Assembly (NCBI GenBank): GCA_947591215.1
Contig: CANQCZ010000002.1
Span: 6,819-70,818 of the forward strand
DNA length: 64,000 nt
Source of the DNA: an uncultured Bacilli bacterium
GTDB taxonomy: Bacteria > Bacillota_I > Bacilli_A > RFN20 > CAG-449
Reading direction: 5' to 3'
Made by a program: the position numbers and the translations under genes. The notes beneath the pieces were generated by a model. That model was not told the DNA's origin. It ran no database searches and saw nothing but the letters and a program-made list of their open reading frames with translations. How positions within the stretch are numbered: position 1 is the stretch's first letter; every line of letters begins with the position of its first letter. Below are positions 9,409 through 62,335 of the stretch, piece by piece.

Positions 9409-9496
9409 AACTTTTCTCCTTTCTTTTTATTAATGCGCCATAGTTTGAAAAATCGTATAAATTACAAAAGTATCACCTCCTTTTCTGAAAGTCCGT

Positions 9497-38487: not shown

Positions 38488-38563
38488 GGGTGTTTAGCTC
38501 AGCTGGGAGAGCATCTGTTTGACGTACAGAAGGTCGGCGGTTCGATCCCGTCAGCACCCACCA
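38488..38563 (+). tRNA. tRNA-Val (anticodon GAC)
   Basis: Cloverleaf: acceptor GGGTGTT/AGCACCC, D-arm GCTCAGCTGGGAGAGC, anticodon stem TCTGT/ACAGA with loop TTGACGT, T-arm GGCGGTTCGATCCCGTC, encoded CCA. Confidence 0.85.
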
Positions 38564-41689: not shown

Positions 41690-41698
41690 TACAGCCAT

Positions 41699-42651: not shown

Positions 42652-43170
42652 TTATTTTAAAAATAGTAAAGACAAAATAACACCCACGGTGATTCCAACC
42701 ACATCTGCCATAAGTCCAACTTTCAGAGCATGTTTCCATTTGGTGATTCCGACGCTTGTAAAATACAACGATAGAACATAAATCGTCGTGTCTGTGCTCC
42801 CTTGAATCGTCGAAGCCATTTTGCAAGTAAAAGAATCGGCACCGGCAGCACATATATTATCTAAAACTGCAATTGAAGCCGAACCGGATATTGGTCTAAA
42901 CAAAACCATCGGTGTAATATCTGCAAACATATTTATCGCGGGGAATAAAGTTTTTAAACTAGCTTTTATATCTGTAATCAATCCCGAAGCTTCTAACATC
43001 GTTACCGCAAGTAACATTGCCATTACCGACGGAAAAACTTCCACAAATAATCCCAATCCTTCTTTGGTACCATTCAAAAATGAAGCATAAGCATTTTTCT
43101 TTTTAATTGCTGCATATATGATAGTTAATATCACCAGCAACGGAATAAATACTAAAGATACTTTATTCAT
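42652..43170 (-). CDS. spmB: Spore maturation protein B
   Basis: 172 aa membrane protein with a SpmB-like pattern (nucleoside-transporter/Gate-like half); partner spmA is found 4.9 kb away. Confidence 0.7.
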   Translation of the reverse strand: MNKVSLVFIPLLVILTIIYAAIKKKNAYASFLNGTKEGLGLFVEVFPSVMAMLLAVTMLEASGLITDIKASLKTLFPAINMFADITPMVLFRPISGSASIAVLDNICAAGADSFTCKMASTIQGSTDTTIYVLSLYFTSVGITKWKHALKVGLMADVVGITVGVILSLLFLK

Positions 43171-43535
43171 TTACGATCATTTCTTTCATCTTTAAATAAT
43201 ATGAACGAATTGATTAACATATTATAAATTTAGATTCTTAATTTTCTATCAGTTCTACTTCAATTTAAAAAGAAAAAAATATGAGGTCAAAACTACAATT
43301 CACTCATGATTAAATGTCTTTATTTAATTAAATGAATATCTATATTTGAAGGCGTTTTTTATGGTATAAAACTACTTCAATTACCCTATTTAAAAGCTTT
43401 TAGCAAACAGATAAATTTCATCACATTTTTAGTAGAAAAATTTCTAATCATTTCGCTTGTGTTATTTTTATCCATATGATATATATTTCATGCAAAATGA
43501 ATTTATTTGTTTTGAAATTAGAAAGGAAAACTTGT

Positions 43536-46500: not shown

Positions 46501-48053
46501 GAGACAACTCCGCTTATGGTACTAAATTTTCCGATCAATTTGAATTGACTAATGGAAGATATTTGATTATCGAAATAACCGGTTCTAGTGCCTACAATCG
46601 ATCAAGTATTCGCGAGATATCGGTTTCTCAATCATTAAATACCGAAGATGTCAACATCTATGGTTCGTCTAGTGAAGAATTCGAATATTACAATGAGTGG
46701 AATCCCGTCAAAGGAAACTTTATAAACGGACTTGCTCAAAAAACTCAAAACGGAGAAATAACCTTTATTCTTGAAGGTAAAGATTTATTGTTATATTTTT
46801 CTCAAGAATCAGCGAGTAACGATGAATCATATGTTTTAATCGATGGTCAAAAATATTCAATAACTATAGATAATACTTCATCTCCTTCCGTATTTATCGC
46901 TGGGCTAGAAGATAAGCAACATACAGTTACTATCGTCGCTAAAAACTTAGTCTTTGATGCGGCATTAACTACCGGACAAATTTTAGAGCAAGACGAACTT
47001 CAAGAACTAAACTTATCGATTAGTGATTTCGTTTATAACGGACAACAATGGAAACCGGTTATTAGTTATAATGGAGTTATATTACAAGAAGGAGTCGACT
47101 ATATTTTAAAATCGTGCGAAAACAATGTTTCTGTCGGTAGTGCTTCTTTCTCGATTGAAGGTAAAGGATTTTATAAAGGAGTATTAGATTCAACCTTTGA
47201 AATATCGCCACTTGAATTAAATAGTGAAACTGTTTCTCTAACAATCGATGATAACAACGTTTTCTCCGGAACTGCTTTAACACCAACTATTGAAATTACA
47301 ACTAAAATCGATAATCAAGAAGTAATTTTAAAAAATGGTATCGATTATGATGTAACCTTTAACAATAATGTCTCCGCGGGCAAAGCTTCTTACACTATTC
47401 AATTTAAAGGTAACTTCCAAGGCACCATAACTTCCTACTTCAATATTTCTCAAAAAGAATTAAGTTCTAATGATGTAACCATTTCTGTTTTGGATGAAAC
47501 CAGTTATACTGGTCAAGAAATCACTCCAAACATCGAGATCAAAATTAACGATCAATCTGTTACCCTTATAAACGGAGTTGATTATGATATCGTATTTTCA
47601 AATAATATCGCTGCCGGCGAAGCTTCATTCACAATCAATTTTAAGGGCAATTATCGTGGTATAATCAATTCCACTTTCACGATTGCTCCAAAAGAAGTGC
47701 AATTAGATAGCAACCTTTTGTCCATCGAAGATCAAACTTATACCGGTGAAGCAATAAATCCCGAGTTGGAAATTTATATAACTGAAAATGATAGAAGAAC
47801 TGATTTAGTCAATGGTGTAGATTACGATGTCACATATTCTAATAACATCGAAACCGGTAAAGCTACAATAACGATCCAATTCAAAGGAAACTATACTGGT
47901 ACAAAAACTCTCGAATTTAATATTGTAAATTCAAATAATAATGTTGAAACAATATTTTTAATTAGCGGAGTTATTGCAATCATCGGCATAATCTCTATCT
48001 TATCAGCGATATTTTTTGTAACCAAAAAGAAAAAATCAATGTCTAAAAATTAA
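43536..48053 (+). CDS. Large membrane-anchored M60-like (enhancin-like) zinc metallopeptidase with a discoidin (F5/8 type C, CBM32-like) domain and four tandem ~75 aa Ig-like repeats; putative glycoprotein/mucin-targeting protease
   Basis: N-terminal signal-anchor; HEMNHNFQ (HExxH followed by downstream Glu, as in M60/enhancin HE[IL]GH.FQ). Discoidin-like block (NPSYNYSHYYIFDFGERVTISNVNIEFYD). Four repeats share the motif NGVDYD[VI]x[FY]xNN[IV]xxGxAxxTIxFKGN[YF]xG. C-terminal TM helix plus KKKK stop-transfer. Confidence 0.6.
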   Translation: MTKGKKTSFLVGFISLCLLIVSFSVFKNNNFSNLLSNKILNNQIQDTTKNRDNNNHFFSNYDSEIIIDEVERSHTPQVFGELSEDQYPSIYHPQTFSDLTGDTPDTVEALNATSLGKIRIENEKILEETDAQIASGTLGKHRSADGQFYGKIDDDAPRIIKKVTINHMVSSRHSLSVFAPAGEILTVTIDQSIIDKTDKDHRLIIVVGFPYRENTVHAVQKKFFQKLQSAQNRMPILFKEFTITEPVTKIGSPLGGMVFLKDIPATIDQNFDITISGGVDNPSYQYGISTTEDWKLILEAPSPYAWIETPYVYFLMPKLYIKNIEELDSSLTFWYKASMLSNYAMGLDTLKGKIRPVIMMYDSYIPSGSALAYPGIFAVICPSSWAITTLDYETTFTTANCWGVIHEMNHNFQYPRVAGLGNPWTVGSNYMEITNNVMNILAYVTYTDIASSRSDSAASASGGGSAVDPYYNLSNLKSISQQKSTFEEFGESKLYAYVDLIHSFGIDKFIHFLRQIGGAEESEYLTPDQVVSASGASHNYTTTEDGFATFASQFFQYDMTDYFQDLWHFNLSQATIEKIKDLNYPKYFSLQNVYALGEKNIETGRPYIFNRNQSEVTLNLEEKTLTSADRFEVASITNIKNGTLIKNSEELYTFAPNDNYDDITFDVTYNAWFDGDETTYQKTLKVQLKFAVNKTVQAIEYSASNGYTVQQAIEQFANEEHKVKTYTTTSLSTSVTDGINLTYLSTKVIFDYKKKLTFMVYGDDATYIKINGQEAYCNQYIDAYWDYNKAKSLTENKIEIDVNPNEPILIEAYCLNTGGPGYIHVQYSEDKVNYSSILSSDCLNPNVNQQVIDDYLKDNSKPFFYDTQYDLESNLLKRMYPNNLDLTKKIQEVKCIDSQGRNIPGQNSDHFIKNLTDNNTGTWFTPNPSYNYSHYYIFDFGERVTISNVNIEFYDSSYAPSGYKYHIADNIDTTNISQSIANASNVFNRDNSAYGTKFSDQFELTNGRYLIIEITGSSAYNRSSIREISVSQSLNTEDVNIYGSSSEEFEYYNEWNPVKGNFINGLAQKTQNGEITFILEGKDLLLYFSQESASNDESYVLIDGQKYSITIDNTSSPSVFIAGLEDKQHTVTIVAKNLVFDAALTTGQILEQDELQELNLSISDFVYNGQQWKPVISYNGVILQEGVDYILKSCENNVSVGSASFSIEGKGFYKGVLDSTFEISPLELNSETVSLTIDDNNVFSGTALTPTIEITTKIDNQEVILKNGIDYDVTFNNNVSAGKASYTIQFKGNFQGTITSYFNISQKELSSNDVTISVLDETSYTGQEITPNIEIKINDQSVTLINGVDYDIVFSNNIAAGEASFTINFKGNYRGIINSTFTIAPKEVQLDSNLLSIEDQTYTGEAINPELEIYITENDRRTDLVNGVDYDVTYSNNIETGKATITIQFKGNYTGTKTLEFNIVNSNNNVETIFLISGVIAIIGIISILSAIFFVTKKKKSMSKN

Positions 48054-48068
48054 AATTTATATGTAGTT

Positions 48069-48656
48069 TTATCTTTTGTTTTTCAGCGCCTTCTTACGAT
48101 AATAACGATCTAATAAAAGTCCTGAAACACAAGATAAAAGCGTGCCGATAATACCATATATGATGAAATCCGTGGGATTTGAAGCACCATAACTATGTCT
48201 TATCGCCATCACTGTAGTAGGTATCAATGTAACTCCGGCAGTGTTTAAAATCAAGAATGTGACCATTTCATCGGAAGCTGTCTTTTCATCTTCCGGTGAA
48301 ATCATCTTTAATCTTTTCATTGCTTTTAAACCGCTTGGAGTAGCTGCGAAACCAAGGCCAAACATATTTGCGGCAATATTGGAAGAAATATATTTTCTTG
48401 CTTCCTCATCTTTTAAATTCGGCATGATAAGATTTAATAGCGGATTTAAAGCTTTAGCAACTTTATCGATAAGACCACTATCATACATGATCATCATAAT
48501 TCCATTCCAAAAACAAGCAGAAAAAACCAATGTACAAACAAGATTCAAGCCCTTTTCCGGCAATGCTAAAATCGAGTTTGCCAAAGCATCAAATCTACCT
48601 GTAACTAATCCATAAATAATTGAAATAACAATAATTCCAATCCAAATTTTATTCAT
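48069..48656 (-). CDS. spmA: Spore maturation protein A
   Basis: 195 aa membrane protein with a SpmA-like pattern; AGGTGAT RBS, which lies inside the left island direct repeat. Confidence 0.7.
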   Translation of the reverse strand: MNKIWIGIIVISIIYGLVTGRFDALANSILALPEKGLNLVCTLVFSACFWNGIMMIMYDSGLIDKVAKALNPLLNLIMPNLKDEEARKYISSNIAANMFGLGFAATPSGLKAMKRLKMISPEDEKTASDEMVTFLILNTAGVTLIPTTVMAIRHSYGASNPTDFIIYGIIGTLLSCVSGLLLDRYYRKKALKNKR

Positions 48657-48660
48657 TTGA

Positions 48661-48729
48661 TATCACCTATATAAATAAATGAATAAAACGATAATGTAAG
48701 AACTATCTAGTTATTAACTTTTTCTTTTT
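48661..48729. repeat. Left copy of a ~69 bp imperfect direct repeat bracketing the accessory island
   Basis: TATCACCTATATAAATAAATGAATAAAACGATAATGTAAGAACTATCTAGTTATTAACTTTTTCTTTTT differs at 3 positions from the copy at 61447-61515. Confidence 0.8.
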
Positions 48730-48808
48730 AAATGGTCAAAACAAAAAATGCTTAAAAAAGTGCAACTATCTATATAGAGATAGCTACACTCTTGCAAGTT
48801 TGTGTTAA

Positions 48809-49117
48809 TTATAAATTATATTTAATATAAATATTAACTACTTCTATAAGTATATTTAAATAATCTCTATCATACTCGTTAAAGTCAAAATTTAAAGCAT
48901 CATATTCAGCCAAATTTGATAGAAAAATTGAGAATTCTTTTATTTCATTTTGAACATCTTCTCTTTTTGCTTTTTTACCTTCTAGAAGCATCGTACACAA
49001 ATCAAAATCAACATGTTCTACATATAATATATTAACAGTAGGATCTTCTTTATACATCGATGGTATTCGCATTTTTTTAAATTTTTTTACAAGTAATTTT
49101 TCATCTTCTGTAAGCAT
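48809..49117 (-). CDS. Hypothetical protein; candidate (orphan) immunity protein
   Basis: 102 aa acidic cytoplasmic protein downstream of the RHS toxin tip; no recognisable motif. Confidence 0.3.
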   Translation of the reverse strand: MLTEDEKLLVKKFKKMRIPSMYKEDPTVNILYVEHVDFDLCTMLLEGKKAKREDVQNEIKEFSIFLSNLAEYDALNFDFNEYDRDYLNILIEVVNIYIKYNL

Positions 49118-49170
49118 TTGTATTACCTCCTATTTTTAATAGTCAAAAAATAGTATAAATTAGACTCCTA

Positions 49171-49365
49171 CTAGTTTCTATTAATTTTTTTCCTTTTCTT
49201 TTTTTCCTTTTCTTCTTTATAACATAATTTTACGATTGGATATATTATTATAATCATTAATGCTGATTCTAACCAGCTATACTTATTAGGTGGTGAAGGA
49301 TCATTATAATATCCGTATATAGTTGAAATTATATATATGATAATTATTTGTATTATTTCAATCAC
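49171..49365 (-). CDS. Small hydrophobic membrane protein; candidate immunity to a membrane-acting toxin
   Basis: 64 aa with two Ile-rich TM segments and a Lys-rich tail; lies in the RHS tip/immunity cluster. Confidence 0.25.
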   Translation of the reverse strand: MIEIIQIIIIYIISTIYGYYNDPSPPNKYSWLESALMIIIIYPIVKLCYKEEKEKKKRKKINRN

Positions 49366-49430
49366 AATTTTTTCCCCATTTTTAAAACCATCTTTTGTAT
49401 AATTGTTATAATTGCTAGTTGAATTATTTC

Positions 49431-49733
49431 TTATAATAAAAAGTCAATTATACTTATAAAATAGACTAAATCATCATATTTTTTAAACAATTCCTCATCA
49501 AATGTTTTGTTTTTTGTGGCTGAGAAATATAAACTGTCTGCTAGATTCTTTAATTCTTTTAGTTTTTCATCACTTAACTCAAAATCAAAGATATATGCAG
49601 GTTCTTTATCAAATCCCATTTTATATCCTGCATAATCAATAGTTGCAGTATCAACTATCCTATCATAATAAGATGGCAACCATTCTTTAACACCTTTTAA
49701 AAAATTTTCAAACAATCTTTTTTCTAATCTCAT
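49431..49733 (-). CDS. Hypothetical protein; candidate immunity protein
   Basis: 100 aa; context only. Confidence 0.3.
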   Translation of the reverse strand: MRLEKRLFENFLKGVKEWLPSYYDRIVDTATIDYAGYKMGFDKEPAYIFDFELSDEKLKELKNLADSLYFSATKNKTFDEELFKKYDDLVYFISIIDFLL

Positions 49734-49903
49734 TTATTAGACCCCCTTAAATAAAAAATGCCATATCCATCTATAATCGCTTGTTAATACTAATTTGTAA
49801 ATACCATTATTAAATTTGCCTTTAATTACAGATGACCCTTTAGCAGTAAACGAATAAAATAATCTACCATTTTCGCCAATGTCTTTGCTCATCTTTCCAT
49901 ATT

Positions 49904-50563
49904 TTATGATATTTTTTGAGTTAAAACAGAGTCAAAATATGGCCTACTATCATTTTTGTTAGAATAATAACTTTCTGGAAATTCTGCACTTCCTATATTC
50001 TTATAGGCTTGTATTCTAGGTGTGTTGTATTTGTACCATGCCCCACAAACAATACTACCAACAGTTGCAATAGTACCAGTAATTGATGCATAAGTATTAT
50101 ATGCGGACGAGTTGCCTCCAAATAATCCATCTTCCATGAAATTATAATCAAAAGCTAAATCTCCAACTTCTGCAACACCATTAATTGTAGTTAGCGCCCC
50201 TGCTCCTATTGTAATACCAGCAACTAATAACATAGGCCATGTAGCAACTCCACTAGCAACGACTAAAGCACCAGCAATAATAGCACCAATACCAGTAACT
50301 AAATATCCTACTCCTTGCCAGAAATAACTCCATTCCCAATCGTGTCCACTAGGATCTGCGTACATTATAGGATTATTATAACAATAACAATATAAATTTA
50401 AGCCATTAATAGATTTAGGGTCTAAATAATCAATTGAATCAGGTGTTAGCCATCTACATAGTTCTGGTGAATAATACCTAGAGTTGCAATAGAAGAGTCC
50501 TGTCTCAAATGATTTATATCGAGTATCCTCAACAAAGATTAACCTATAACAATTTAATTTCAT
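49904..50563 (-). CDS. Orphan RHS C-terminal fragment: end of the RHS core plus a glycine-zipper membrane toxin-like tip
   Basis: The RHS core terminal consensus is readable (RYYSPELCRWLTPDSIDYLDPKSINGLNLYCYCYNNPIMYADPSGH). It is followed by a Gly/Ala/Ile-rich hydrophobic segment (GIGAIIAGALVVASGVATWPMLLVAGITIGAGALTT). The ORF begins inside the core, so there is no N-terminal YD-repeat shell. Confidence 0.65.
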   Translation of the reverse strand: MKLNCYRLIFVEDTRYKSFETGLFYCNSRYYSPELCRWLTPDSIDYLDPKSINGLNLYCYCYNNPIMYADPSGHDWEWSYFWQGVGYLVTGIGAIIAGALVVASGVATWPMLLVAGITIGAGALTTINGVAEVGDLAFDYNFMEDGLFGGNSSAYNTYASITGTIATVGSIVCGAWYKYNTPRIQAYKNIGSAEFPESYYSNKNDSRPYFDSVLTQKIS

Positions 50564-50624
50564 TGTAAAATTAATTATTTAAAATTTTTTTCAAACTTAC
50601 ATTATTTTCTTGTGAAAATATTTA

Positions 50625-50876
50625 TTATTTTTTATTTAATATTTTTTCACATTGTGGACATAATCCATCTTCATTTAATGGTAAAGGCTTAAAATATTTT
50701 TTTATAAAATACACTTCCAATGATCCATCTACAGTTGTGATTTTTTCAGGCATGTTTGGCTTATATCCTTTTTCATGACAACATATACATTCGTTAATCC
50801 ATTTTTTAAATTTTGGAAAAGCATTGATATATTCTTCGCCTTCATTTCCGTTTCTTTTCATTACAATTTTCCCCAT
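50625..50876 (-). CDS. Small zinc-ribbon-like protein (CxxC...CxxC)
   Basis: 83 aa; CICCHEKG and CPQCEK Cys pairs. Confidence 0.3.
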   Translation of the reverse strand: MGKIVMKRNGNEGEEYINAFPKFKKWINECICCHEKGYKPNMPEKITTVDGSLEVYFIKKYFKPLPLNEDGLCPQCEKILNKK

Positions 50877-51129
50877 TTCTCTAAAATTTTTTTTAATAAA
50901 TTAATTAACTTTTTTAAATTATCATGAGTACTATAAGGATATTTATCAATTTCTTTATGCAATCTTTGCCATAAATTTCAATTTTTTATTGTCTAATGGT
51001 CTTATTTTTTTCTTCATTATAAAAATAATTGATTTTATTAGTAACAGCATTATTTGAATTAATCCAATCTTCCTCAAGAATAATATCACCATTAAAATAA
51101 TAATTTACATAAATTATTAGAATTTTCAA

Positions 51130-51400
51130 CAATCTTATATATTGCTATATGATCATCAAATTCATAAATATCATTAATAAAACATGGTTCTACTTTAATT
51201 AATCCTTCATTAGCTAATTCTTTAATTATCTTTTGTATTGTTCTATCACTAACTGCTAGTTTAGATGATAAATAATTAATTTTAATAGAAGTACTACTAT
51301 TATCAATGATATAATTTAGAACTATTTCTTTACGTTCACTAGGCGTAGATTTACGATAATGATAAACTGTTGTTCTTAAGGCTTATGATATACTTCAGGA
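51130..51400 (-). pseudogene. Frameshifted/disrupted remnant of a winged-HTH (DeoR/HTH_11-like) regulator
   Basis: The minus-strand frame reads ...YRKSTPSERKEIVLNYIIDNSSTSIKINYLSSKLAVSDRTIQKIIKELANEGLIKVEP... (classic wHTH) but has no start codon and stops upstream; no ORF of 60 aa or more was called here. Confidence 0.35.
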
Positions 51401-51456
51401 ATTACTATTCCATACTTACGATAGTTTTCGTTTTCTGATGTGTAGTACACACAACT

Positions 51457-53226
51457 CTAATCTTTGTCCACAACATTAAATAAACCATTTTTGCCAATCA
51501 AAACAACATTTTCAGAATTAGGTCTTCTTTTTCTTGAAACTTGTTGAACATATAAAAAGGTCGGCATTTGAAATGCTGTTCCTGATACAATACATTCACC
51601 TGGAGCCAATATAGTAATAAAATCCAATGACGCATCATCCATATATGCAACCGCCTTTCTGATTTTCGAAATGTCAGATGGATTAACTAGTTTATGTATA
51701 AAATAATTGTGTAGTTGAGAAATAATAGTTTGAGATATATCACTTGGTCTTTGACTAGCAATCATTAAAAATAACCCAAATTTTCTTCCTTCTTTTATTA
51801 CCTTTTCAAAAACATCTAAAACAGATTCGTGACTCAAAATATTTTTATTATCTTCATATAGAATATTATGAGCTTCATCTACCACAATGTTTATAATCTG
51901 TTTTATTTCTCCTTCTTCTTTTTTCTCAACCAATCTATTAAATATATTATTTGTTATTATAGATGGTACAATTTCTTTCATGTCTCTATTAACATTTCCA
52001 AGTTGCACTATACAAACGTTTTTGTCATCAAAAATATCCTTAAATTCTTCTGTGAAATCAAAAATTTTGCGGAAGTCATTAATTAATTTTCTAGCTCTAG
52101 CTATTAACGGCATCATAAAATCAAGATTTACGCCATTCTCATTTTCGTGTGCAACCGCAAAATATAACTCAAATAAAAATCTGTCCAAACTATCTTCAGG
52201 AAGAGTTATATCAATATTGTCTAACGCTTTTTCAAATTCACAACTTCCACAATAAAAAATTGTTCCGTTGCTATTTTTATAATGAATTTTAACTTGCTGT
52301 GAATGATAAAAAAATCCATCTAATCCAGTAAAATATTCATTTAGATATACCCTCATAGATTGAAATAAAGATTTTTTTGCATTTGTGATTATCAATTTTA
52401 AATAATTTAAATAATATTTTTTCCCGCGTCTTTCTTCTTCATCTTTTTTCATTTCTTTATAGGCATTTTTAACTACTGGGGCTTGAGTTTTTTGTGAAGC
52501 ATTCATTAGAACTATAAAATCATCTTCGCTTAAAGAATTCAAATTTAAAGGTATTTTCCTCAATGATGACTTTTTGCTTGTAGATAAAGGATAAATCGTT
52601 TTTTCAGTTTCTTCACAAATTGCTGATTTACCATACTCATTGTTTAAATCTAAAATCAAATATTTACCATTTTTGGTTTTATATTTATTCAACAAATTAG
52701 TATACTCCTGCAAAATTTTGGTTAAAGTATTTGATTTACCACTACCTGTATTTCCAAAAACACCAATATGAGACGGTATTAACTTATTAATTTCGATATT
52801 TATACCTTTATTTTCATCAAACAAATCATTTCCAATAAATATTGTGTTAGACGAACCTGAATTATAAATGTTTTCATAGTCATCTTTATCTAACAATTCT
52901 ATATTTGCAGACACAATTGGCAATATTCTAAGACCTTGTATGAATTTATTTTTATCCAAATAACCCTTCACTTGCAAATCCAAGAAATGAGATTGAACAT
53001 TACTACCAATCTCTTCGCTATATTCACCAACCACTTGGCAAATAATTGTATCTATTCCAATCTTGGTTTTGACAAATCCATTTATTTTAGGAGCAGATTC
53101 CCTCTTTCCATTTTCAACCAAATATGGAGGTAATAAATTAAAAAGCTTTGCTCTAACCTGAAGTCCTTTAACTTCAACTATTCTTCCAACGATTTTTCCC
53201 ATAACTCTTTCACCATATTTGAACAT
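51457..53226 (-). CDS. herA: HerA-family (DUF87, FtsK/HerA-type) ATPase, partner of SIR2 in a SIR2-HerA defense pair
   Basis: N-terminal HAS-barrel-like start (GKIVGRIVEVKGLQV), Walker A (GNTGSGKSNT), Walker B (IVVDEAHN), ASQRPSDI motif; overlaps the upstream SIR2 gene. Confidence 0.75.
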   Translation of the reverse strand: MFKYGERVMGKIVGRIVEVKGLQVRAKLFNLLPPYLVENGKRESAPKINGFVKTKIGIDTIICQVVGEYSEEIGSNVQSHFLDLQVKGYLDKNKFIQGLRILPIVSANIELLDKDDYENIYNSGSSNTIFIGNDLFDENKGINIEINKLIPSHIGVFGNTGSGKSNTLTKILQEYTNLLNKYKTKNGKYLILDLNNEYGKSAICEETEKTIYPLSTSKKSSLRKIPLNLNSLSEDDFIVLMNASQKTQAPVVKNAYKEMKKDEEERRGKKYYLNYLKLIITNAKKSLFQSMRVYLNEYFTGLDGFFYHSQQVKIHYKNSNGTIFYCGSCEFEKALDNIDITLPEDSLDRFLFELYFAVAHENENGVNLDFMMPLIARARKLINDFRKIFDFTEEFKDIFDDKNVCIVQLGNVNRDMKEIVPSIITNNIFNRLVEKKEEGEIKQIINIVVDEAHNILYEDNKNILSHESVLDVFEKVIKEGRKFGLFLMIASQRPSDISQTIISQLHNYFIHKLVNPSDISKIRKAVAYMDDASLDFITILAPGECIVSGTAFQMPTFLYVQQVSRKRRPNSENVVLIGKNGLFNVVDKD

Positions 53227-54053
53227 TCCAATGTAGTATCAATGCCTTCTTCGTTTTCTATAATTGTAATATTATCTACCATATTTTCGGGAATATAATC
53301 TTCTTTTTTAAATTTATACCAATAAATTGTTAATCCTGATGAAATACAATCTTTTAAAATTTTGTTAATATGTTCATCATTCCCTGAATATCCAATAACA
53401 ATAAGTACAGAATTTTCTCTAGACAATTTTTCTTTCATTTTAAATAATATCTCAAATCTATTTGCCATTATCATTGAGTCATACTTATTTATTCCTGGTA
53501 AAATAGGATTATTAATATCTCCATGCAATTTAGAAACTAAATACGTTGGCACAAATTTATTAAATAAGAAGTTATATCCAACCATATAAAAGAACTTATC
53601 GTGGTTTTTTATATTAGAAGATGAAATTGAATTACTTAAATATCCAAGATTTTCTAATACCTTTTCAACAATCATATCATAATTAAGTGTGTATATATTC
53701 ACTTGCTTAGTAGTTTTTGTTCTATTTTCAGATTCCTCTACTAACTTATTTATAATAAAAAAAAGTGATTCAATATTCTTAATTGATTTGTGATTGAAAT
53801 CTATTGTTTTAGAAAAATCATTAAACTCTTCCACAAACAAATCAAAAACTTGTTTTTTATCCTTGTCTGTTTTTAATTTATCTAGACCTTCTTCGAAATT
53901 TTGGAAAGGTTCTTTTAATAAATTCTTTAATAATTCTAATGATTTACTAAATTTATTAATTTGTGGAAAAGCAGCCCCATTAACCCCCGCACCAAATAAA
54001 AAATTAATGTGTGATGATGATAAGATTTTAGAATCAAATTTTACTGTATTCAT
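53178..54053 (-). CDS. SIR2-like (SIR2_2/DUF4020-type) NADase domain protein
   Basis: FLFGAGVNGAAFP (GAGxS-like Rossmann), YTLNYDMIVEKVLE (TxNYD-like), KLHGDINNP and VIGYSGNDEHI motifs are characteristic of defense-associated SIR2 domains; GAGGTG RBS. Confidence 0.65.
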   Translation of the reverse strand: MNTVKFDSKILSSSHINFLFGAGVNGAAFPQINKFSKSLELLKNLLKEPFQNFEEGLDKLKTDKDKKQVFDLFVEEFNDFSKTIDFNHKSIKNIESLFFIINKLVEESENRTKTTKQVNIYTLNYDMIVEKVLENLGYLSNSISSSNIKNHDKFFYMVGYNFLFNKFVPTYLVSKLHGDINNPILPGINKYDSMIMANRFEILFKMKEKLSRENSVLIVIGYSGNDEHINKILKDCISSGLTIYWYKFKKEDYIPENMVDNITIIENEEGIDTTLECSNMVKELWEKSLEE

Positions 54054-54074
54054 ACTATTACACCTCGAACTTCT

Positions 54075-56036
54075 TTAATAATTTGTAATCAACACTTCTC
54101 TAGTTACAGTTTCTTTATCCTTTATTTGGTAATTAGAATTGCTATAACTTGCTTTTATATAAATCAAATTAAAATGATTTTTATCAATCCATTGCTTTAA
54201 TTTTTCATGAACTTTACCTTTATGTTCGATGACATTAGACAACGCAAAAGGTATCCCTTCTTCATTTAATTTTTCTAAGAATTTTAATAACTTTCTTTCT
54301 TCTTTAATTGTCCATCCATTATTTTCGTTATATGAAGCTATTCCTAAATAATATGGTGGATCACAATAGAAAAACGGATTGTCTAAATTAGAATAATCTA
54401 TTTTATTAAAATCTTTATTTTGAAATAAAATAGTTTTATTTTTAATTTTTAGTACGAAATCTTTAATATTTTTTCTAGATGATGAATTGAAATCCCTCTT
54501 TCCTACAGGCATATTAAATTCACCGTTAGAGTTAAATCTAATTTGATTGTTAAATGAGAAAATTATTAATGTTAACAAAAGAAAATCTTTTTCTTCGCTT
54601 TCTCTTTTTAAAGAATTATATTCTTCTCTTAATTGAGTATACTTTTCCTTATTGTAACTGCCTACACCAGAATCACTTTCACAATTGTAATATTCATATC
54701 CATTTTCATAAGTGTTAGACAATTCATACTTTGCAATGTTTTTTTCGATTTTTTTAATAATTACCGAATAATCGTACTTGTAAAATAATTTTATTAATCT
54801 AGTAATCTCTTTTTGTTTATCGTTATAAACAATTATATCACATTCTACATTAGCACCAACATTAAATCCACCACCAAATAGGTCAATAAATGAATTGAAA
54901 TGTGTTGGAAATTTTTCTAATAATTGAGGCAATAATTTATATTTTCCACCAGTATAGTTTAAAGGTGATTTAGCATAACCATTTATTTTTTCTTCACTTT
55001 CATATTCTGTAGTTTGTTTACCTACAAAACATAGAAATAATCTTTCCTTATGATCTTCTATATCTGTTTTACCAGTATTAAATTGATTGAATTCTTTTTC
55101 AAACACTTTAACTTTGCCTTTTGCTAATAATATTCTCATGATGTCATCATCACTAATTTTAGCTTGTGATCTGCCAGCACCTTTAGTACCCATATTATTA
55201 TATGAAACTAAAATATATCTAGCATTGATATTATTAATTAAATCTTCAAATTGTTTAGGTGCTGTATGTGTACAATATTTACTTTTCAAATTACTTCTAT
55301 CCATTTTCTTAGCAACACCAAATACTTCTGGTTTTTCCCAAGAAGCAACATTTTCAAGCAAATGATAAGCATCACAATATTGTCGCGAATTATATGGTGG
55401 ATCAATATACACTAAGTCTGCAACAACTCTTCTAACTAATGAATTTGCATCTTCTCTGTAAATAATATTGTTTAAATTAACTTCTCTTGCTGGTAAGTCT
55501 AGTTCTTCTAAAACAAGGTCTTTATTTAAATCACCATTCATTCTATAAGCATCATAATGCCCTACAGTGTTTGCAATTCTATCCATTGCATATAAGAGAG
55601 ATGTTATTAAAATTGCTTTTTCTCTTTCATTTAATTCTCCATTATTAAATTGGTTTTCAATATTTTCTCTAATATATCCTATTTTTTTACAATTAAATTC
55701 ACTAAAAAAAGTATTAGAGAAATTATTTGAAAAATAATTGTCTTCTAATATTTCCAACTCATTATATCTTGTAATTAAACCACTAATTTTGCCTTCATCA
55801 ATCTCTTGACTACCAAACCACGCAATATAAGAAAGGTAATTAGACATTAAAATATCGTTAACCATTATTGTTGTATATTGATTATTAAAATTCCAAGCAA
55901 CATTACCTGTTCCACCAAACAAATCTAAAATGATATTTATATTTTCACATTCCTTATTTACTACCTCTGTAATAAATGATAATAACTTAGCTTTACTTCC
56001 TAAATATCTTCTGTTTTTTATATTGAATTTACTCAT
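54075..56036 (-). CDS. Tandem two-domain Dam-family (D12 class) N6-adenine DNA methyltransferase, Type IIS-style
   Basis: Two complete MTase modules in one polypeptide: module 1 RYLGSKAKLL / DLFGGTGNV / DPPY; module 2 NYTGGKYKLLPQL / DLFGGGFNVG / DPPY. Confidence 0.8.
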   Translation of the reverse strand: MSKFNIKNRRYLGSKAKLLSFITEVVNKECENINIILDLFGGTGNVAWNFNNQYTTIMVNDILMSNYLSYIAWFGSQEIDEGKISGLITRYNELEILEDNYFSNNFSNTFFSEFNCKKIGYIRENIENQFNNGELNEREKAILITSLLYAMDRIANTVGHYDAYRMNGDLNKDLVLEELDLPAREVNLNNIIYREDANSLVRRVVADLVYIDPPYNSRQYCDAYHLLENVASWEKPEVFGVAKKMDRSNLKSKYCTHTAPKQFEDLINNINARYILVSYNNMGTKGAGRSQAKISDDDIMRILLAKGKVKVFEKEFNQFNTGKTDIEDHKERLFLCFVGKQTTEYESEEKINGYAKSPLNYTGGKYKLLPQLLEKFPTHFNSFIDLFGGGFNVGANVECDIIVYNDKQKEITRLIKLFYKYDYSVIIKKIEKNIAKYELSNTYENGYEYYNCESDSGVGSYNKEKYTQLREEYNSLKRESEEKDFLLLTLIIFSFNNQIRFNSNGEFNMPVGKRDFNSSSRKNIKDFVLKIKNKTILFQNKDFNKIDYSNLDNPFFYCDPPYYLGIASYNENNGWTIKEERKLLKFLEKLNEEGIPFALSNVIEHKGKVHEKLKQWIDKNHFNLIYIKASYSNSNYQIKDKETVTREVLITNY

Positions 56037-56083
56037 TTAATTTTTCATTTCCTTTTTAGGCATCTCATGCATCTAATTATAAC

Positions 56084-56114
56084 AAAAAAAGCCTTATATT
56101 ACAACAATAAGGCT
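56084..56114 (-). terminator. Rho-independent terminator downstream of the putative restriction endonuclease gene
   Basis: GCCTTAT-loop-ATAAGGC hairpin with a T7 run on the minus strand. Confidence 0.45.
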
Positions 56115-56216
56115 AATTTAATTTTGGCCTCACTTTTGTTTTGAAACCCCATGATTTTGAAGAGTTTTTTTAAAACCCCACGCAACCCCACGCGTTTTCG
56201 AGGAGGACCTTAATTT

Positions 56217-58187
56217 TTATATTTTTTGTACTAGTGTATTGTTATACCAATCTAATCCAGTCTGAAGAGAATTATAGGCTTCATCAAAAATTGTATATAA
56301 TTCATCATAATTCTTTTTCTTTTCCACTATATCTTTAATTAAATCTACATCTACAGGAATTATTTTCAATCCTATATCTTCACCTCTGACATTAATTTGA
56401 TAATTTTTCATAACCCTAAACGTTTTTAGTGTTCGTTCTTCTAATTGTGAAGCTACAAATAATACGTAATCATATTTGTTGTTAGTTTTATTAACATGAT
56501 TTTCTAAATGTCTAGAAACTGGTTCCCATTCCATGTGTCGTTGCCCAGTAGATTCACTTAAAGTTGCTTCTAATAACATATCATGCTTAGGATATGAAAT
56601 TAATTTAGGATAGTTAAATACTAGATCAGCGTCTCCACCTGGAGCATGTGTTTTAGGCATGAAGTTAGCATCTAAAGTTAGATTCATATACTCTTCCAAT
56701 CTACCTATTCTTCCACTAACTTGATACCATATAATACCTAGAATGTATTCAAATATGGTAGATGGAGTAGCGTCATCAGTTACTAATTCTTTAATTCTAT
56801 TATCATTTCTAGTTTTAAAACAATCTAGTAATTCAAGAAGCACATCTTTTCCTAATTTTTCATCTATCATTTTAATAAAAGTATTATTTTTAATATCTTT
56901 TAAATATTCCTCTAATTTTCCAGGAACAATCGTTCCTCCATATTTAGTATTAATCGTATTAGTAATATCTGCTTCAGTTTTATTACATTCAGGATATATT
57001 TTATCTATTTCCAGATAATTAGTAAAATATTGTTCATAATTATCATTAGAAATCATAGGCTTAAACAACATTTTTTCTACAATATCATTGAAATAATACT
57101 CTGCAATTTCAACTAATTTAAATCTACCATTTTCATATTTAATAATATCTGTTAAATTGAAATAACGTTTATTTAAGTCATAATAGTCTTCTAATGTAGA
57201 TTTCCACTTCATTAAATGCCATGTTTTAAAGAAATAATCCTTAAACTCTTCTTCAGTGCTACATGAACAAATATTTAATTCATAAAAATATAATAAATAT
57301 TCTTGATTAAACTTTGTGTTTTTATAAAGTTTAAACATAGACTTCCAAGTAGAAGCTTGATTTGCGTTTATTTTCGAAAATGCATCTTTTAATTGTTTTA
57401 ACAACAATATTCTTTCATCATCATTTAAACTCACTCTATCTATAACTAAAGTTTTTAAAACATTATATACTTTAGCAAACGGTCTGTCGTACTTTCCACT
57501 TTTTCTATTCATACCTATCTGTTCCATTACAGATTCATCTATTACATCACTTGTCATCAATAAGTTATATGCTTCTTGATAATTATCCATAGACATCATT
57601 TTTTTAATAAGTAAATTATCAACAGAAATTTTTCCTCTTGCACTTAAAATATCCGCTGTTGTTTTTAATACATCGTTATTATTCATACAAGTAGGATATA
57701 AATAAGTAAATTCTTCTCTTGTCAAATATTCAAGTTTTGATAGCATATACAACAACACTACAAAAGGCCTTATTTGAATTGTATTATCATTAATTTGATA
57801 TTTTAAAAATTGCAAAAGATATACATAACTGTCCTTTGGAATTTCTAGTATGTTATCAGAACTAAAATCACCAGATAGCGATATTTTATTGATCAAATCA
57901 CCTATTGGTGTAATGTGCCTAGATTTTCTATAAACCAATCCGATATCAGCCAATCCAGATGTTTTTTCTCTTGCATCTTTATCTTTAATCGCATCATAAT
58001 CTTCAATAAAATCTTTAGAAACCAATAAATCAAAATATTTTGCTTGTAGTGTTTTATTCCATTCAATATCAGGATTTGAAGTAAATAATTCACTTAAATA
58101 TCTTAATTGACACTCGTTTTTATAGTTTAATTGATCAACTCTAAAACTTGTTGTTCCAATACTCCAACAATAGCTTTTAAATCCCAT
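56217..58187 (-). CDS. Putative Type IIS-like restriction endonuclease (partner of the tandem Dam MTase)
   Basis: 656 aa protein immediately upstream of the fused double MTase, a typical Type IIS organisation. The C-terminal region has acidic residues (GGDADLVFNYPK...EATLSES) that could form a nuclease site; the family assignment is uncertain. Confidence 0.4.
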   Translation of the reverse strand: MGFKSYCWSIGTTSFRVDQLNYKNECQLRYLSELFTSNPDIEWNKTLQAKYFDLLVSKDFIEDYDAIKDKDAREKTSGLADIGLVYRKSRHITPIGDLINKISLSGDFSSDNILEIPKDSYVYLLQFLKYQINDNTIQIRPFVVLLYMLSKLEYLTREEFTYLYPTCMNNNDVLKTTADILSARGKISVDNLLIKKMMSMDNYQEAYNLLMTSDVIDESVMEQIGMNRKSGKYDRPFAKVYNVLKTLVIDRVSLNDDERILLLKQLKDAFSKINANQASTWKSMFKLYKNTKFNQEYLLYFYELNICSCSTEEEFKDYFFKTWHLMKWKSTLEDYYDLNKRYFNLTDIIKYENGRFKLVEIAEYYFNDIVEKMLFKPMISNDNYEQYFTNYLEIDKIYPECNKTEADITNTINTKYGGTIVPGKLEEYLKDIKNNTFIKMIDEKLGKDVLLELLDCFKTRNDNRIKELVTDDATPSTIFEYILGIIWYQVSGRIGRLEEYMNLTLDANFMPKTHAPGGDADLVFNYPKLISYPKHDMLLEATLSESTGQRHMEWEPVSRHLENHVNKTNNKYDYVLFVASQLEERTLKTFRVMKNYQINVRGEDIGLKIIPVDVDLIKDIVEKKKNYDELYTIFDEAYNSLQTGLDWYNNTLVQKI

Positions 58188-58689
58188 ATTATCTTCACCA
58201 CTACTTTCTACTTTTTTTGATAAATGATACTAAAATTATATTAAAGTTTTCTTAAAAAATATATAAATTAACATAAATATATTTCTAATTAAATCTTATT
58301 TTATAAAAAAGAAAAGGCAAGCATAATCTATCGAATAAACTTACATTATTTTGTTTGTAAAAGTAATTTGCTATTATTTTGTGTTCTAAATTTTATAAGA
58401 TATATTTTTTCTATTCTTTTGTTATCTAAATTTCTTAACAATTACTTCTATTAACCATTAAACACCAAATACTAGTCCTAATAATACAAACATTGTAACA
58501 ATTCCAATGATTGCATGTTTAAATGTCATTCCTTTAGGATTGTTTCTAAACGCAGCAGAAATCGACATTAACAAACAATGAAAACAATATTTAATGAACT
58601 TCCATATCGTTTATACCTTCTAAAAATATTGATAACGAAAACAGCAATGCCCCCCTAGAAAGCAAATAACTCCAGTTTTTACGGAAGGA

Positions 58690-59182
58690 ATCGCCTATAA
58701 GGCAGAGCCAATATTTCCCATTGTTAACCAATGATTTGGGGTTCTTGGTGCAATTTTAGATAGTAATTGTGGTCCAAATTTCCTGCCACTGCCCAACCAC
58801 CTGCTCCACCTGTTAAACCTGCAACTAATCCATATAATGTTCCAAACAATGTTGAAATCGTTAATTAGATCAATTAAATTCACCAGCATCAATCAATTGC
58901 TCTACAACGTTTATTCCTTCAGATATAAGACCTTCAGTTAACATAGCAGTCCCTACAGCGGTGGCTCCCGCTCCGGCAACGCCACAAGTTAATACAATAG
59001 CAAACCCAGCAACCACTCATTCATTGTGCCCATTTAGGCATATGAACATCAGAATCGATATACAAAATAGGATTATTATAACAATATAGATTTAAGCCAT
59101 TAATAGATTTAAAATCTAAATATTCAATTGAATCAGGTGGTAACCATCTACAAAGTTCTAGTGAATAGTAACATGAGGATAC
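58690..59182 (-). pseudogene. Degraded RHS core terminus plus Gly-rich toxin tip (stop/frameshift-interrupted continuation of the upstream RHS fragment)
   Basis: After the stop at 59183, other frames read ...YSLELCRWLPPDSIEYLDFKSINGLNLYCYNNPILYIDSD... and ...GVAGAGATAVGTAMLTEGLISEGINVVEQLIDAGEF. This is paralogous to the 49904-50563 tip but broken by stops. Confidence 0.5.
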
Positions 59183-61086
59183 TCAATATAGTACTGTCTC
59201 CACATCAAAATAGTATCCACGATATCTAAATGGATTAAGAGTTGCAATTCCATCTACATCATTAGTAATTATGTGATTACCATAAGCATCATATGCATAT
59301 CCCCCTACTTCATTTCCTTCATCATCGTATATAGCAATAATATCACCTTGTATATTTCTTAAGTAGATATATTCTTTGCTATTACTACCATCATTATAGT
59401 TGAAACCAATCAATTTGTTAAAAGCATATTTGTATGTCAATATCCCATTTTTGGTAATTGTCCTTAGTATTCTTGTTCCATCGACGATGAATGAAGTTTC
59501 AACATCATTAACAATCTTATTTCTTCTTATACCATTTGCATCATAGGAATAATAAGCCTCCACTTCTTCACTCATGAAACTTAATAAATTTCCATTACTT
59601 TCCCATTCTAACAAATTATCCATATAAGTAATTGGACGTCCCATTTTATCATATTCAAACTGTTTGCCATTAAAGAATAGTAATTGGTCATTCCATCCAT
59701 CACATTCATAAGTATATTCATCTACTTTTGGTGAATACAATTTATCTTCTAGAGTATATTCATAAGTTTTCTTTAAAAGAATATTTCCTGCACTATCGTA
59801 CTTATAGGTAATGGTCTTATTTAATTTTGGATTATCCTCTCTTACAAGACGATTTAATTTATCGTATTGATATCTTGTTAAACTATCATCAGCATCGATT
59901 TCAATGATATTACCACTTTCATCATAATTATATTTGCTTGTCTCAGTCATATAAATTTTAATAGGTATTAGTTTGTTCTCTTCAGATATAGACTCTTTTC
60001 TTACAATGACTTTGGTTCGATCCTCAGCAACTAAATCCAAACTATTTTCATCTTGTTGCAAATAACTATATTCGTGGCACAACTCTATTTTCTGTAAAGA
60101 ATAGCTACTACTTTTATCTATTTCAATATTTTGATGCTTTACTCTATTTAGAACATCATAATCATAATTAATTGTAAATAGTCCATTAATATCTAATGTC
60201 GTTATTCTATTTTCTTCATCATATTGATACTCAGTTTGTAAAACATCACCATCTTGGATGCTGATTTCTTCTTTACTTAAAAGATTCTTACTATCATACG
60301 TAAATGCGCGGTAGAAATGTGCATCATCATTTACAGTCTTGGTAAAATCTGTAACATTATTATAATCATCATATGATGTTTCTAAAACTTCTGTAAAAAC
60401 TTCCTGAGTATCTAGATTTGTCTTATTAGAAATGACTTTTGTTAAGTTTTCATCTTCATAGTCATATATGCTTTCACCCTGATGTATATCACTATTAAAA
60501 CTTAATAATTTTAATCTATTCTCATCATCAGTTATATAACTAGTTTTATAGTCAGCTTCAAATTCGGTTTCGACAAAACTACCATGCTTGATTTTTAGAT
60601 CATTATTTTTATAATTATCATCGTAAATATTACGTAAATAATTACTACCATTTAAATTATTTTGAACTTTTCTTCCCTTTCCATCATAAATGTAATCAAC
60701 TTTCATTCCATGATGTGCTAATGAGGTTAGTAAACCATAGTTATAAGTAAACGATTTGGAATTATTGATTCCTTCAGCACTTGAAGTAATACTAAGTAGA
60801 TCCCCTGTGTTAAAATCATAGGTATAACATGTAGTTTCTCCATTTACTCCTTTAATTTTACTTTGAATATTTGTGTTTGGTAAATAAGTTACTTCTTCGG
60901 TAGGATAATTACCTTTTCTATCTTTGATTTGTCCTTTAATAGATAACACTCTTCCTTGTTCATCGTATTCAGCTTTTCCCACTTTCATCAAAGATGCATC
61001 TTTTTTATTATAGGTTCTCCTTTCAAAACATTGTCCTTTATCATTATAGTAGTATTCTTCAACGTTTCCTTTACTATCTTCTACTT
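59183..61086 (-). pseudogene. 5'-truncated RHS/YD-repeat protein fragment
   Basis: Multiple YD repeats (YDEQGRVL, YDGKGRKV, YDKLNRLV, YDKMGRPI) ending in NPFRYRGYYFDVETVLY (start of the RHS core). The open frame continues upstream to a stop at about 61086 with no start or N-terminal domain; the first in-frame ATG is at 60988. Confidence 0.6.
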
Positions 61087-61446
61087 AAAATATTAAAGAG
61101 TTTCACATAGTAGTCCTTTAATAAATCTTGCCATATTTCCCAACCCCTATATTTGCTATATAAAAAATGTAATAATAAGAACCCACCCTTAAAAAAATGT
61201 AAAATTTATTAAATTGTAATAATTATTGTCAAAATTTGCAACTTCATATTATTTTTAGACTAATAGTACGATATTATAAATTAATTTGAATTCAATCCTT
61301 ATAACTAAAATGACTTTTTGTTCTTGAAATTGCTTCTTTCAATTTTGACTTTAATCTGATTAATTTTATTATTAATTATAATTCTTAGTAGTTCTTTATA
61401 AAAATCAATTCATCAATATGATTTCATTAAAAATCTTATTCATCAA

Positions 61447-61515
61447 TATCACTTATATAAATAGATGAATAAAACGATAATGTAAGAACTATCTAGTTAC
61501 TAACTTTTTCTTTTT
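61447..61515. repeat. Right copy of the ~69 bp direct repeat; overlaps the 3' end of the adjacent membrane-protein gene
   Basis: TATCACTTATATAAATAGATGAATAAAACGATAATGTAAGAACTATCTAGTTACTAACTTTTTCTTTTT; contains the last 7 codons and stop (61493-61495) of the 61493-62335 gene. Confidence 0.8.
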
Positions 61516-62335
61516 GCTTATTTTCTTTATTGTTCTTTTTATTATTTTTTTGTTGTAACTTAATTTGTCGTTTTTCTTCTTTCTGCTCGCGTTTGATTTC
61601 TTCTTCTATTTCTTCAAACATTTTTCGATAAGTTTCATTCTCATCGATTAATACTTTTCGTGAGAAAACCTTATATGCTTCTTCACCGCTGATTTGGATG
61701 ATAAGTAAACATATTTTTTTTATAATTATCGAAATAGAATTATCTACAATTGCTTTTTTTAACCAATGAAAAGGATTTAATAAATTAAGTGCCGACATCA
61801 TAGTTTTGACTTTTTCAGGAATCTTATGTTCGTTTATGGTTTTAACCGGTTTAGAATTTTTAACTTCTATTAACGAAATTACTGTCGATAATTTCATCTT
61901 TCTAAGAATTGAAAGCATGCGATTGGAAAATATATTTTCAACTCGATCTGTTATATATTTACTTAATAGCACAAGTTCATCAAAAGTCAATTCTGCCATT
62001 GGGTGTTTGGACTTTGGATGATACCATTTGGCGATTTGAAGAACTTCTTCTTTGACACATGAAGTAAAAGCTGTATCTTTCAAATTCGGATCTTGAATCC
62101 GATATTTATATTCATGCTTGTAATGTTCAATAAGTTTAATGACATCTTCATCTTTGATATCCACAAAAGTATTATCGATGATATATCGGGATTTTCTTAA
62201 CGACAGCAAAGCGCTATAAAGGTATAATAAAAAAGTGATTACAATCCCTAAAGCAATGCCAGTTAAAAGGGTAATTACTAATGAAATATTTAATTCAAAT
62301 TCAATTCCGAAAATTTCAAATAAAAAATAGTTCAT
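61493..62335 (-). CDS. Membrane protein of unknown function with a Lys/Glu-rich C-terminal tail
   Basis: Two N-terminal TM helices, a C-terminal low-complexity KEQKEEKRQIKLQQKNNKK tail, AGGAG RBS. Confidence 0.4.
   Translation of the reverse strand: MNYFLFEIFGIEFELNISLVITLLTGIALGIVITFLLYLYSALLSLRKSRYIIDNTFVDIKDEDVIKLIEHYKHEYKYRIQDPNLKDTAFTSCVKEEVLQIAKWYHPKSKHPMAELTFDELVLLSKYITDRVENIFSNRMLSILRKMKLSTVISLIEVKNSKPVKTINEHKIPEKVKTMMSALNLLNPFHWLKKAIVDNSISIIIKKICLLIIQISGEEAYKVFSRKVLIDENETYRKMFEEIEEEIKREQKEEKRQIKLQQKNNKKNNKENKQKEKVSN

Follow-up and report, generated by a model that had tools for sequence, protein, structure and literature searches.

How did a 12.8 kb block of toxin and defence genes come to lie between two direct repeats, beside an spmA-like gene, in an uncultured member of the Bacilli? 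The block occupies positions 48661-61515 of a 64,000-nucleotide (nt) stretch of contig CANQCZ010000002.1, and this whole stretch is referred to herein as the window. An earlier note on the same DNA had interpreted the block as an inserted defence/toxin island, and its repeats as the att-site duplication left by site-specific integration into the 3′ end of a gene. From our comparison with related genomes, the block is an ordinary strain-variable toxin/defence islet and not a demonstrable mobile element. It probably began as an old, apparently immobile insertion of an RHS-toxin locus, set in a 99-bp target duplication, and later underwent decay of the toxin gene and gain of a defence cassette. 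Look-ups of exact proteins, together with a scan of species-representative genomes for a sequence pattern, assign the window to uncultured Bacilli represented by metagenome-assembled genomes (MAGs) from the rabbit ('Lapin') gut. The minus strand is the coding strand of the genes in the block and of its two flanking genes. The G+C content is 23-29% across most of the block vs 32-35% in the flanks, and the rest of the window is made up of housekeeping genes, recA among them.

The two direct repeats, at 48660-48729 and 61446-61515, are 70 nt long and identical at 67 of 70 positions, with 12,786 nt from start to start, in agreement with the 69 bp and three mismatches first reported. A lower-identity extension carries the similarity about 30 nt further (48631-48729 vs 61418-61515), giving 99 nt at about 88% identity. 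Read on the minus strand, the repeat comprises the last 23 nt of the gene for a 280-amino acid (aa) membrane protein (61493-62335), including its stop codon TAG, a spacer of about 50 nt ending in the ribosome-binding site (RBS) of spmA, and the first codons of spmA (48069-48656, 195 aa). The right and left copies agree at 22/23, 45/50, and 21/30 positions of these three segments, respectively. A 33-nt core of the repeat was found at two sites only in the window when up to three mismatches were allowed, with a shuffle expectation of 0.00.

Each copy retains one functional half. In the right repeat (61418-61515), the membrane-protein gene has its genuine 3′ end (61515-61493, with the TAG at 61495-61493); next come a duplicate of the spmA spacer, whose RBS has been weakened to AAGTGAT, and a decayed spmA start, in which an ATG at 61443-61441 opens a 12-codon relic open reading frame (ORF) that ends at a TGA at 61407-61405. 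A recognisable decayed spmA start, ATGAATAAGATTTTAGTTGGAATCAT..., is also present in the right repeat of contig L014. The left repeat (48631-48729) contains the functional spmA spacer, with the RBS AGGTGAT at 48668-48662, and spmA codons 1-9 from the ATG at 48656, together with a 23-nt relic (48729-48707) that duplicates the 3′ end of the membrane-protein gene away from the gene itself; the left end of the island reads ...TTTTGACCATTT. The stop codon and the RBS are thus where the earlier note had placed them. No terminator was found in either repeat region, and a sigma-70 promoter scan of both regions gave matches at chance level. The element upstream of spmA showed no similarity to the canonical dacB-spmA spacer of distant relatives, and a scan of JGI metagenomes for the repeat returned 0 hits. 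A 30-nt inverted repeat (I7, 48879-48908/61325-61354, 83% complementary), lying some 100-150 nt inside the island ends, was considered as a pair of terminal inverted repeats and rejected: nine similar inverted pairs arise in the window by chance, and the I7 repeat was itself judged to be a chance occurrence because its left arm lies in strain-specific sequence that is absent from the other variants.

An insertion is indicated by a sister species (contigs of the CANQEO type, L016-L020), whose membrane protein is 64% identical to that of the window. In it, spmA directly follows the membrane-protein gene across a 205-nt spacer, and the roughly 60 nt before spmA are homologous to the repeat and occur in single copy. 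Because the sister species has the two genes adjacent to each other and the sequence in single copy, the block is an insertion with target duplication. The comparison with relatives that had been proposed for this locus thus yielded the predicted arrangement, a membrane-protein gene abutting spmA without the island. The right copy of the repeat keeps two states in common with the sister species, both of which have been lost from the left copy.

Among the island-bearing genomes, the window shares its right and left junctions with the MAGs CANQWG and CANQAG and with contigs L014/L015, at island lengths of 12.8, 13.5, and 15.3 kb, and the content of the interior differs among them. The conspecific or near-conspecific contigs L014/L015, L001-L003, and L023/L024 have flanks 93-98% identical to those of the window, and the same core flanks enclose differing interiors in the window and in L001, L002, L014, and L024. 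Homology between strains ends at window position 61111 and, on the other side, at 48748, 19 nt inside the boundary of the left repeat; the toxin and immunity-like genes beyond 48748 are specific to the individual strain. Since all the island-bearing genomes have the same junctions, they point to a single old event and not to repeated att integration, and the island predates the divergence of these lineages. About 28 contigs encode the exact SpmA or a membrane protein that is exact or 99% identical; none of them shows the membrane-protein and spmA genes next to each other, and the island appears to be fixed in the species. The CANQAG island was read up to either side of an interior stretch of about 8 kb (CANQAG010000006.1, 56001-64000).

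The number of repeat copies follows the presence of the island. An exact IUPAC pattern, which diverged copies would escape and which was applied to incomplete MAGs, found two copies in CANQWG (13.5 kb apart), two in CANQAG (15.3 kb apart), and one in CANQEO; the repeat is not dispersed, an outcome that the earlier note had asked to be checked. Both copies lie on one contig in two independent assemblies. In CANQAG, the right copy is of the left type at two sites and shows right-type states further on, a thin pattern that suggests gene conversion between the repeat copies. Three metagenome contigs (L008, L009, and L013) end exactly inside the 70-99 nt repeat; because the repeat breaks short-read assemblies of the species, the island is fragmented in most samples.

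What entered the site can be seen in the less decayed variants. A complete RHS locus lies inside the same junctions in L014/L015, L001-L003, and L023/L024 and consists, in order, of a non-coding leader of about 300 nt, an ECF-type sigma factor (168-185 aa), a 209-aa protein, an S8 peptidase (534 aa), proteins of 87 and 171 aa, a 2157-aa RHS protein, strain-specific tips, and small ORFs. The accessory genes may regulate or process the RHS toxin. In the window, the leader and a relic of the sigma-factor gene occupy 61086-61417, the leader being 96% identical to that of L014. From its ATG at 61134-61132, the relic retains the first eight codons and, after a 45-nt internal deletion, about 25 more nt, and then passes into the interior of the RHS gene. 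The joint runs from 61111, on the side of the sigma-factor gene start, to 61081, which corresponds to nt 4344 of the L001 RHS gene. From there an N-terminally truncated RHS remnant (59183-61081) is 98% identical to nt 4344-6240 of the L001 gene and closes with an in-frame stop codon at 59185-59183. Compared with CANQWG, about 7.5 kb has been deleted, comprising the sigma factor, the 209-aa protein, the S8 peptidase, the 87-aa and 171-aa proteins, and the N-terminal 1277 codons of the RHS gene.

The remnant still matches RHS shell families (PF05593, E=2e-17; TIGR01643; TIGR03696, E=3.6e-16). The L001 gene is intact at 2157 aa, whereas truncation, the stop codon, and frameshifts leave no intact delivery protein in the window. 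Downstream of the remnant is a broken RHS tip (58241-59182), in which a copy of the core-end repeat (59061-59177) precedes a toxin domain that frameshifts and stops have broken up and, possibly, a broken immunity gene. Further downstream is an older, orphan RHS C-terminal module of 219 aa (49904-50563), with the Rhs-associated core TIGR03696 and a variable tip. It begins with a second core-end copy (50361-50483), 87% identical to 59078-59177 (repeats D1 and D7), and these core-end repeats of 100-120 nt bracket the broken tip and the defence cassette. The cassette, a winged helix-turn-helix (wHTH) relic (51095-51382; a start-less, stop-bounded frame matching HTH_11, E=3.7e-6), and an 83-aa ORF with CxxC...CxxC motifs and no family match (50625-50876) all lie between the broken tip and the orphan tip.

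Four small ORFs (49737-49892, 49431-49733, 49171-49365, and 48809-49117, together spanning 48809-49892) follow the orphan tip. None has a family match above the cut-off, and from their position they are candidate immunity genes. A 33-nt repeat (D3, 73%) is present in three copies, at 49370-49402, 49695-49727, and 50867-50899, each placed at the start of a small island ORF or immediately upstream of it, and contains ...AAATGGGGAAAA... on the coding strand in two of the three. Immunity-type cassettes may share it as a junction or as a translation-start sequence, or it may have arisen by chance in AT-rich DNA.

Displaced orphan C-terminal tips and immunity genes are usual in Rhs/YD polymorphic toxin loci (PMC3150448). 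As in those loci, the shell gene is followed here by a variable tip, and a second tip with a piece of the core end (TIGR03696, 87%) and small ORFs lies downstream. The present locus differs in that the main gene is truncated and interrupted by a stop and frameshifts, so that no delivery is possible, and in that a restriction-modification (R-M) and SIR2-HerA cassette lies between the tips; it also differs in its Gram-positive host and in the ECF-type sigma factor and S8 peptidase encoded upstream in the intact variants. A module with the order sigma factor, ~210-aa protein, S8 peptidase, ~90-aa protein, 166-171-aa protein, and giant RHS protein recurs at differing sites in MAGs of gut Bacilli (L014 11208-19116, L033 1273-11910, and L034 8502-13329). 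The S8 peptidases of related modules at unrelated loci are 44-49% identical, and no convincing flanking repeats were found at the related modules of L033 and L034.

The defence genes have a separate boundary. They form a four-gene cassette of 6.8 kb (51468-58240), with the endonuclease gene first. An AlwI-family type IIS restriction endonuclease of 656 aa (56217-58187; RE_AlwI PF09491, E=3.2e-64) is followed by a fused double Dam/D12 N6-adenine methyltransferase of 653 aa (54075-56036; two PF02086 stretches, and PADLOC MTase_II on both halves), a SIR2-family effector of 291 aa (53178-54053; SIR2_2 PF13289, E=4.5e-10), which overlaps the next gene by 49 nt, and a HerA ATPase of 589 aa (51457-53226; PADLOC HerA, E=3.5e-112, over the full model length). 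Profile matches thus agree with the gene content first described, namely SIR2-HerA, a type IIS-like R-M system with a fused double Dam, RHS fragments, and a broken wHTH regulator. The whole segment is 87-92% identical in DNA to positions 5080-11759 of L029, a contig from an unrelated metagenome, where the same four genes sit behind unrelated defence-type genes and the HerA protein is 94% identical. This homology extends from about 50 nt before the endonuclease gene to the HerA stop. The SIR2-HerA pair is kept as a unit in L029-L032 and occurs alone, at 77-85% identity and with other neighbours, in other defence islands.

At the cassette ends, no direct target duplication of at least 10 nt and no inverted repeat other than one trivial inverted 10-mer was found. 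A megablast search of 50563-59183 against plasmid and phage collections gave no match, and scans of IMG/VR with HerA and the AlwI enzyme found no relatives. The description of the block as an inserted defence/toxin island is retained for the toxin, since an RHS toxin locus is what entered; the defence genes were a later, separate gain of 6.8 kb. All four cassette proteins match their homologues and models in full length and may therefore be active.

In known SIR2-HerA systems, a HerA hexamer and a SIR2 ring form a complex that depletes NAD+ and nicks DNA on infection, leading to abortive infection; types I-III have been defined for E. coli systems (PMC11472057, PMC11514289, PMC13434337). The pair described herein, recognised from its genes, resembles these in its adjacent, overlapping genes and its strong PADLOC matches to HerA and SIR2. 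It differs in its scores against the NCBIfam 'anti-phage' equivalogs, which lie below the cut-offs (147 vs 850 bits for HerA and 37 vs 500 for SIR2); because they are so far under, the pair would belong to a divergent lineage of the Bacilli/Mycoplasmatota type. Enzymes of the AlwI family have been reported as constantly paired with a fused Dam methylase (PMC12898733), and the predicted system conforms, with an RE_AlwI endonuclease beside a single protein containing two D12/Dam domains.

According to the history that we propose, one RHS polymorphic-toxin locus would have been inserted between the membrane-protein gene and spmA, in the short spacer that separated them, at a time when the sister species had already split off and the present lineages had yet to diverge. 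About 99 bp of target would thereby have been duplicated: 23 nt at the end of the membrane-protein gene, the spacer of roughly 50 nt, and the initial codons of spmA. A single reciprocal crossover of the Campbell type, between circular DNA and the junction, would give the observed geometry, with either RecA or a site-specific recombinase (lost or acting in trans) as the presumed agent. Such a duplication would have left both flanking genes intact, and the non-functional halves would have decayed afterwards. Most plausibly, homologous recombination, acting in the core genes on either side and in the conserved core-end sequence of RHS, has turned over the island interior. The RHS delivery gene of this strain has been killed by a nonsense codon, by frameshifts, and by the loss of about 7.5 kb. 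The gain of the 6.8 kb cassette, with its AlwI-type type IIS R-M system and its NAD-depleting SIR2-HerA abortive-infection pair, would have been a separate event, and a later one if we infer the order of the two correctly.

Several points weigh against this history. The sister spacer measures 205 nt vs about 50 nt here and does not represent the exact pre-insertion state, and there is no direct evidence of how the 99-bp duplication arose. The comparison set consists of three species-level MAGs (CANQWG, CANQAG, and CANQEO) and metagenome contigs (the L-numbers), and the gene conversion suggested in CANQAG comes from two sites only. A recombinase may be encoded elsewhere in the genome, and on an unrelated contig (L034) a 199-aa resolvase gene lies directly beside a related sigma-S8-RHS module. 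The cassette may have arrived with an RHS tip or separately, and its ends show no target duplication or inverted repeat.

The alternative that fares best is the one advanced in the earlier note, in which an integrative element entered the 3′ end of the membrane-protein gene by means of a tyrosine or serine recombinase, with the repeats as its attL and attR. Its integrase would have been deleted or would act in trans, and the block would be a still mobilisable remnant resembling the cis-mobilizable elements (CIMEs). Much of the geometry fits: the ends are direct repeats that include a gene 3′ end, with the gene rebuilt intact at one end and a displaced partial copy left at the other, and the site is empty and single-copy in the sister species (L016/CANQEO). 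The 70-nt core, at 96-99% identity vs about 70% in the distal part, and the small resolvase adjoining the related module in L034 also favour it. CIMEs, moreover, are a described class of decayed Firmicutes elements that keep attL and attR and have lost their integration and transfer genes (PMC5704250), and the block shares with them the lack of an integrase and the direct repeats at its ends, one of these including the target gene's 3′ end.

What is missing is the recombinase. Neither a tyrosine or serine recombinase nor a relic of one was found in the island ORFs or in the remaining window ORFs of at least 110 aa outside nested frames, as the earlier note had already observed for the window, and none was found in the parts read of the other island variants or in their flanks of roughly 10 kb. 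In all, four island variants, as read, lack an integrase or relic. No tRNA or non-coding RNA that could be an integration target was found in the island. The complete variant contains toxin-locus genes only, with no spare coding room beyond the non-coding leader of about 300 nt. Because no integrase or recombinase was found, the att-site reading stands without its defining component. The duplicated segment covers the whole spacer and both gene ends, including the spmA start codon, and is a better fit to host DNA than to an element-borne core. No presence/absence polymorphism was seen within the species among the roughly 28 contigs, and the phage, plasmid, and viral collections gave no hits. 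Compared with CIMEs, there is here no sign that the repeats are recombinase sites, no related integrative and conjugative or integrative and mobilizable element with a matching integrase, and no accretion partner, and the repeat spans the ends of both genes. Of the att-site claim, the insertion and the target duplication are upheld by the single-copy site of the sister species, and the att/integrase part is set aside in favour of one old event; we consider it doubtful that the block is such a remnant.

A local origin of the repeats would have required either that the junction was first copied in tandem, with the DNA then inserted between the copies, or that a long staggered break was filled in during end-joining capture of foreign DNA. 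Both copies do look like host sequence, spmA start included, no mobility gene is present, and the homology boundary on the membrane-gene side is sharp. Nevertheless, the first route calls for two events at one spot and the second for a repair pathway undocumented for bacterial island capture, and the 19 nt just inside the left repeat are unlike the sequence downstream of spmA, all of which makes a local origin unlikely. A tandem duplication of the whole of spmA was likewise rejected as the source of the repeats, as these 19 nt do not match its downstream sequence.

An integrase-free island whose repeats still function may also be imagined, one that excises and re-enters by RecA-dependent (Campbell-type) recombination or with a recombinase in trans, and in which the RHS core end serves as an internal landing pad where defence cassettes come in together with new toxin tips. 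We give this possibility little credence; if true, defence systems of Gram-positive gut bacteria would have a way of moving that does not depend on a recombinase. That the repeats are a dispersed intergenic or regulatory sequence, or an assembly artefact, found at the block edges by coincidence is hardly credible, since, even if metagenome assemblies often break inside the repeat (L008, L009, and L013), there are two copies only in the window, two in each of two MAGs and one in the sister MAG, the repeat holds the ends of both flanking genes, and two independent assemblies span both copies.

The old RHS-toxin insertion, which we continue to prefer, is one of several interruptions of this locus. 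In Bacillus subtilis, the operon dacB-spmA-spmB consists of adjacent, co-oriented genes for an S11 carboxypeptidase, SpmA, and SpmB. The identification of spmA in the window derives mainly from dacB-spmA-spmB synteny in distant relatives. Its product gave a weak match to the Gate domain, the Pfam Gate matches of the spmB-like gene (a 172-aa ORF at 42652-43170) were weak too, and the membrane protein has no family match; an NCBIfam search with SpmA and the membrane protein found no match. The naming of both genes is supported by human-gut relatives (L036 and L038-L040, SpmA 69-71% identical), because in them dacB, spmA, and the homologue of the 172-aa ORF are contiguous.

It had been stated that dacB, expected upstream of spmA, was absent here. 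This was not borne out: an S11 carboxypeptidase gene (PF00768, E=7e-51) is present in close relatives, three genes upstream of spmA, in the order dacB-csoR-copA-membrane gene in L014, L016, and L023 (csoR-copA-membrane region at 6130-9930, 6101-9935, and 287-4087, respectively). Alignment with L023 places the start of dacB about 1.2 kb past the right edge of the window, which falls inside copA. Therefore, dacB is separated from spmA by csoR, copA, the membrane-protein gene, and the island, and the three genes of the operon are not contiguous. On the other side, a 4.8 kb segment (43247-48066) with an M60 peptidase gene on the plus strand (43476-48053) separates spmA from the spmB-like gene. This segment is present in the window and in CANQWG and not in CANQAG, where the two genes are 125 nt apart, and represents, at the spm locus, a second indel of independent origin. 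A weak 34-nt repeat (D11, 71%) near both of its edges is probably a chance occurrence.

Compared with the canonical operon, there are accordingly three inserts: the csoR-copA-membrane gene segment, which is also present in the sister species, the RHS island, and the M60 segment. From its gene order, the copper-efflux pair csoR-copA looks like an earlier insertion into the sporulation operon. The spacers of this operon took up foreign DNA repeatedly, in three events at three junctions and not by reuse of one att site. The proposal of an integration hotspot at the spore-maturation locus survives in this weaker form, as an spm operon interrupted at three places; recurrent use of a single att site does not.

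Variable regions between conserved core genes have been described as integrase-free chromosomal hotspots, or 'core defence hotspots' (PMC5635113; PMC10250203). The locus resembles them in its conserved core flanks, its strain-variable content, the presence of defence systems in some strains, the lack of mobility genes, and a turnover for which recombination in the flanks is the best explanation. Unlike them, it began with a datable single insertion with a 99-bp duplication, its ancestral cargo was an RHS toxin locus instead of defence genes, and it is represented by a handful of genomes. Its significance is modest, as an RHS locus with an orphan tip, an AlwI-type R-M system, a SIR2-HerA pair, and a variable region between core genes are all of known kinds. 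The case contributes a history, resolved fairly well, of an uncultured Bacilli lineage from the rabbit gut: the insertion can be dated, lacks a recombinase, and has a target duplication of unusual length (99 bp); a toxin gene decayed while a defence cassette, known as a unit from another context, was gained; and the conserved dacB-spmA-spmB operon was broken piecemeal by three unrelated inserts. Two details stand out, namely the 99-bp duplication without a visible recombinase and the lodging of a defence cassette in an RHS locus that is dying. For genome scanning, the case is a caution that direct repeats, low G+C content, and defence genes do not alone indicate an active integrative element.

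Elsewhere in the window, far from the island, ordinary core features were found. These are a class B RNase P RNA (29557-29887), a lone tRNA-Val(GAC) (38488-38563), and an FMN riboswitch (41581-41695) upstream of a gene for an ECF-transporter S component (40680-41504). A 548-aa ORF on the minus strand (36114-37760) combines a PolyA_pol head domain of the CCA-adding or poly(A) polymerase type (residues 22-141) with a complete Peptidase_M19 (membrane dipeptidase) domain (residues 230-545), and represents either an unusual fusion or two genes run together.

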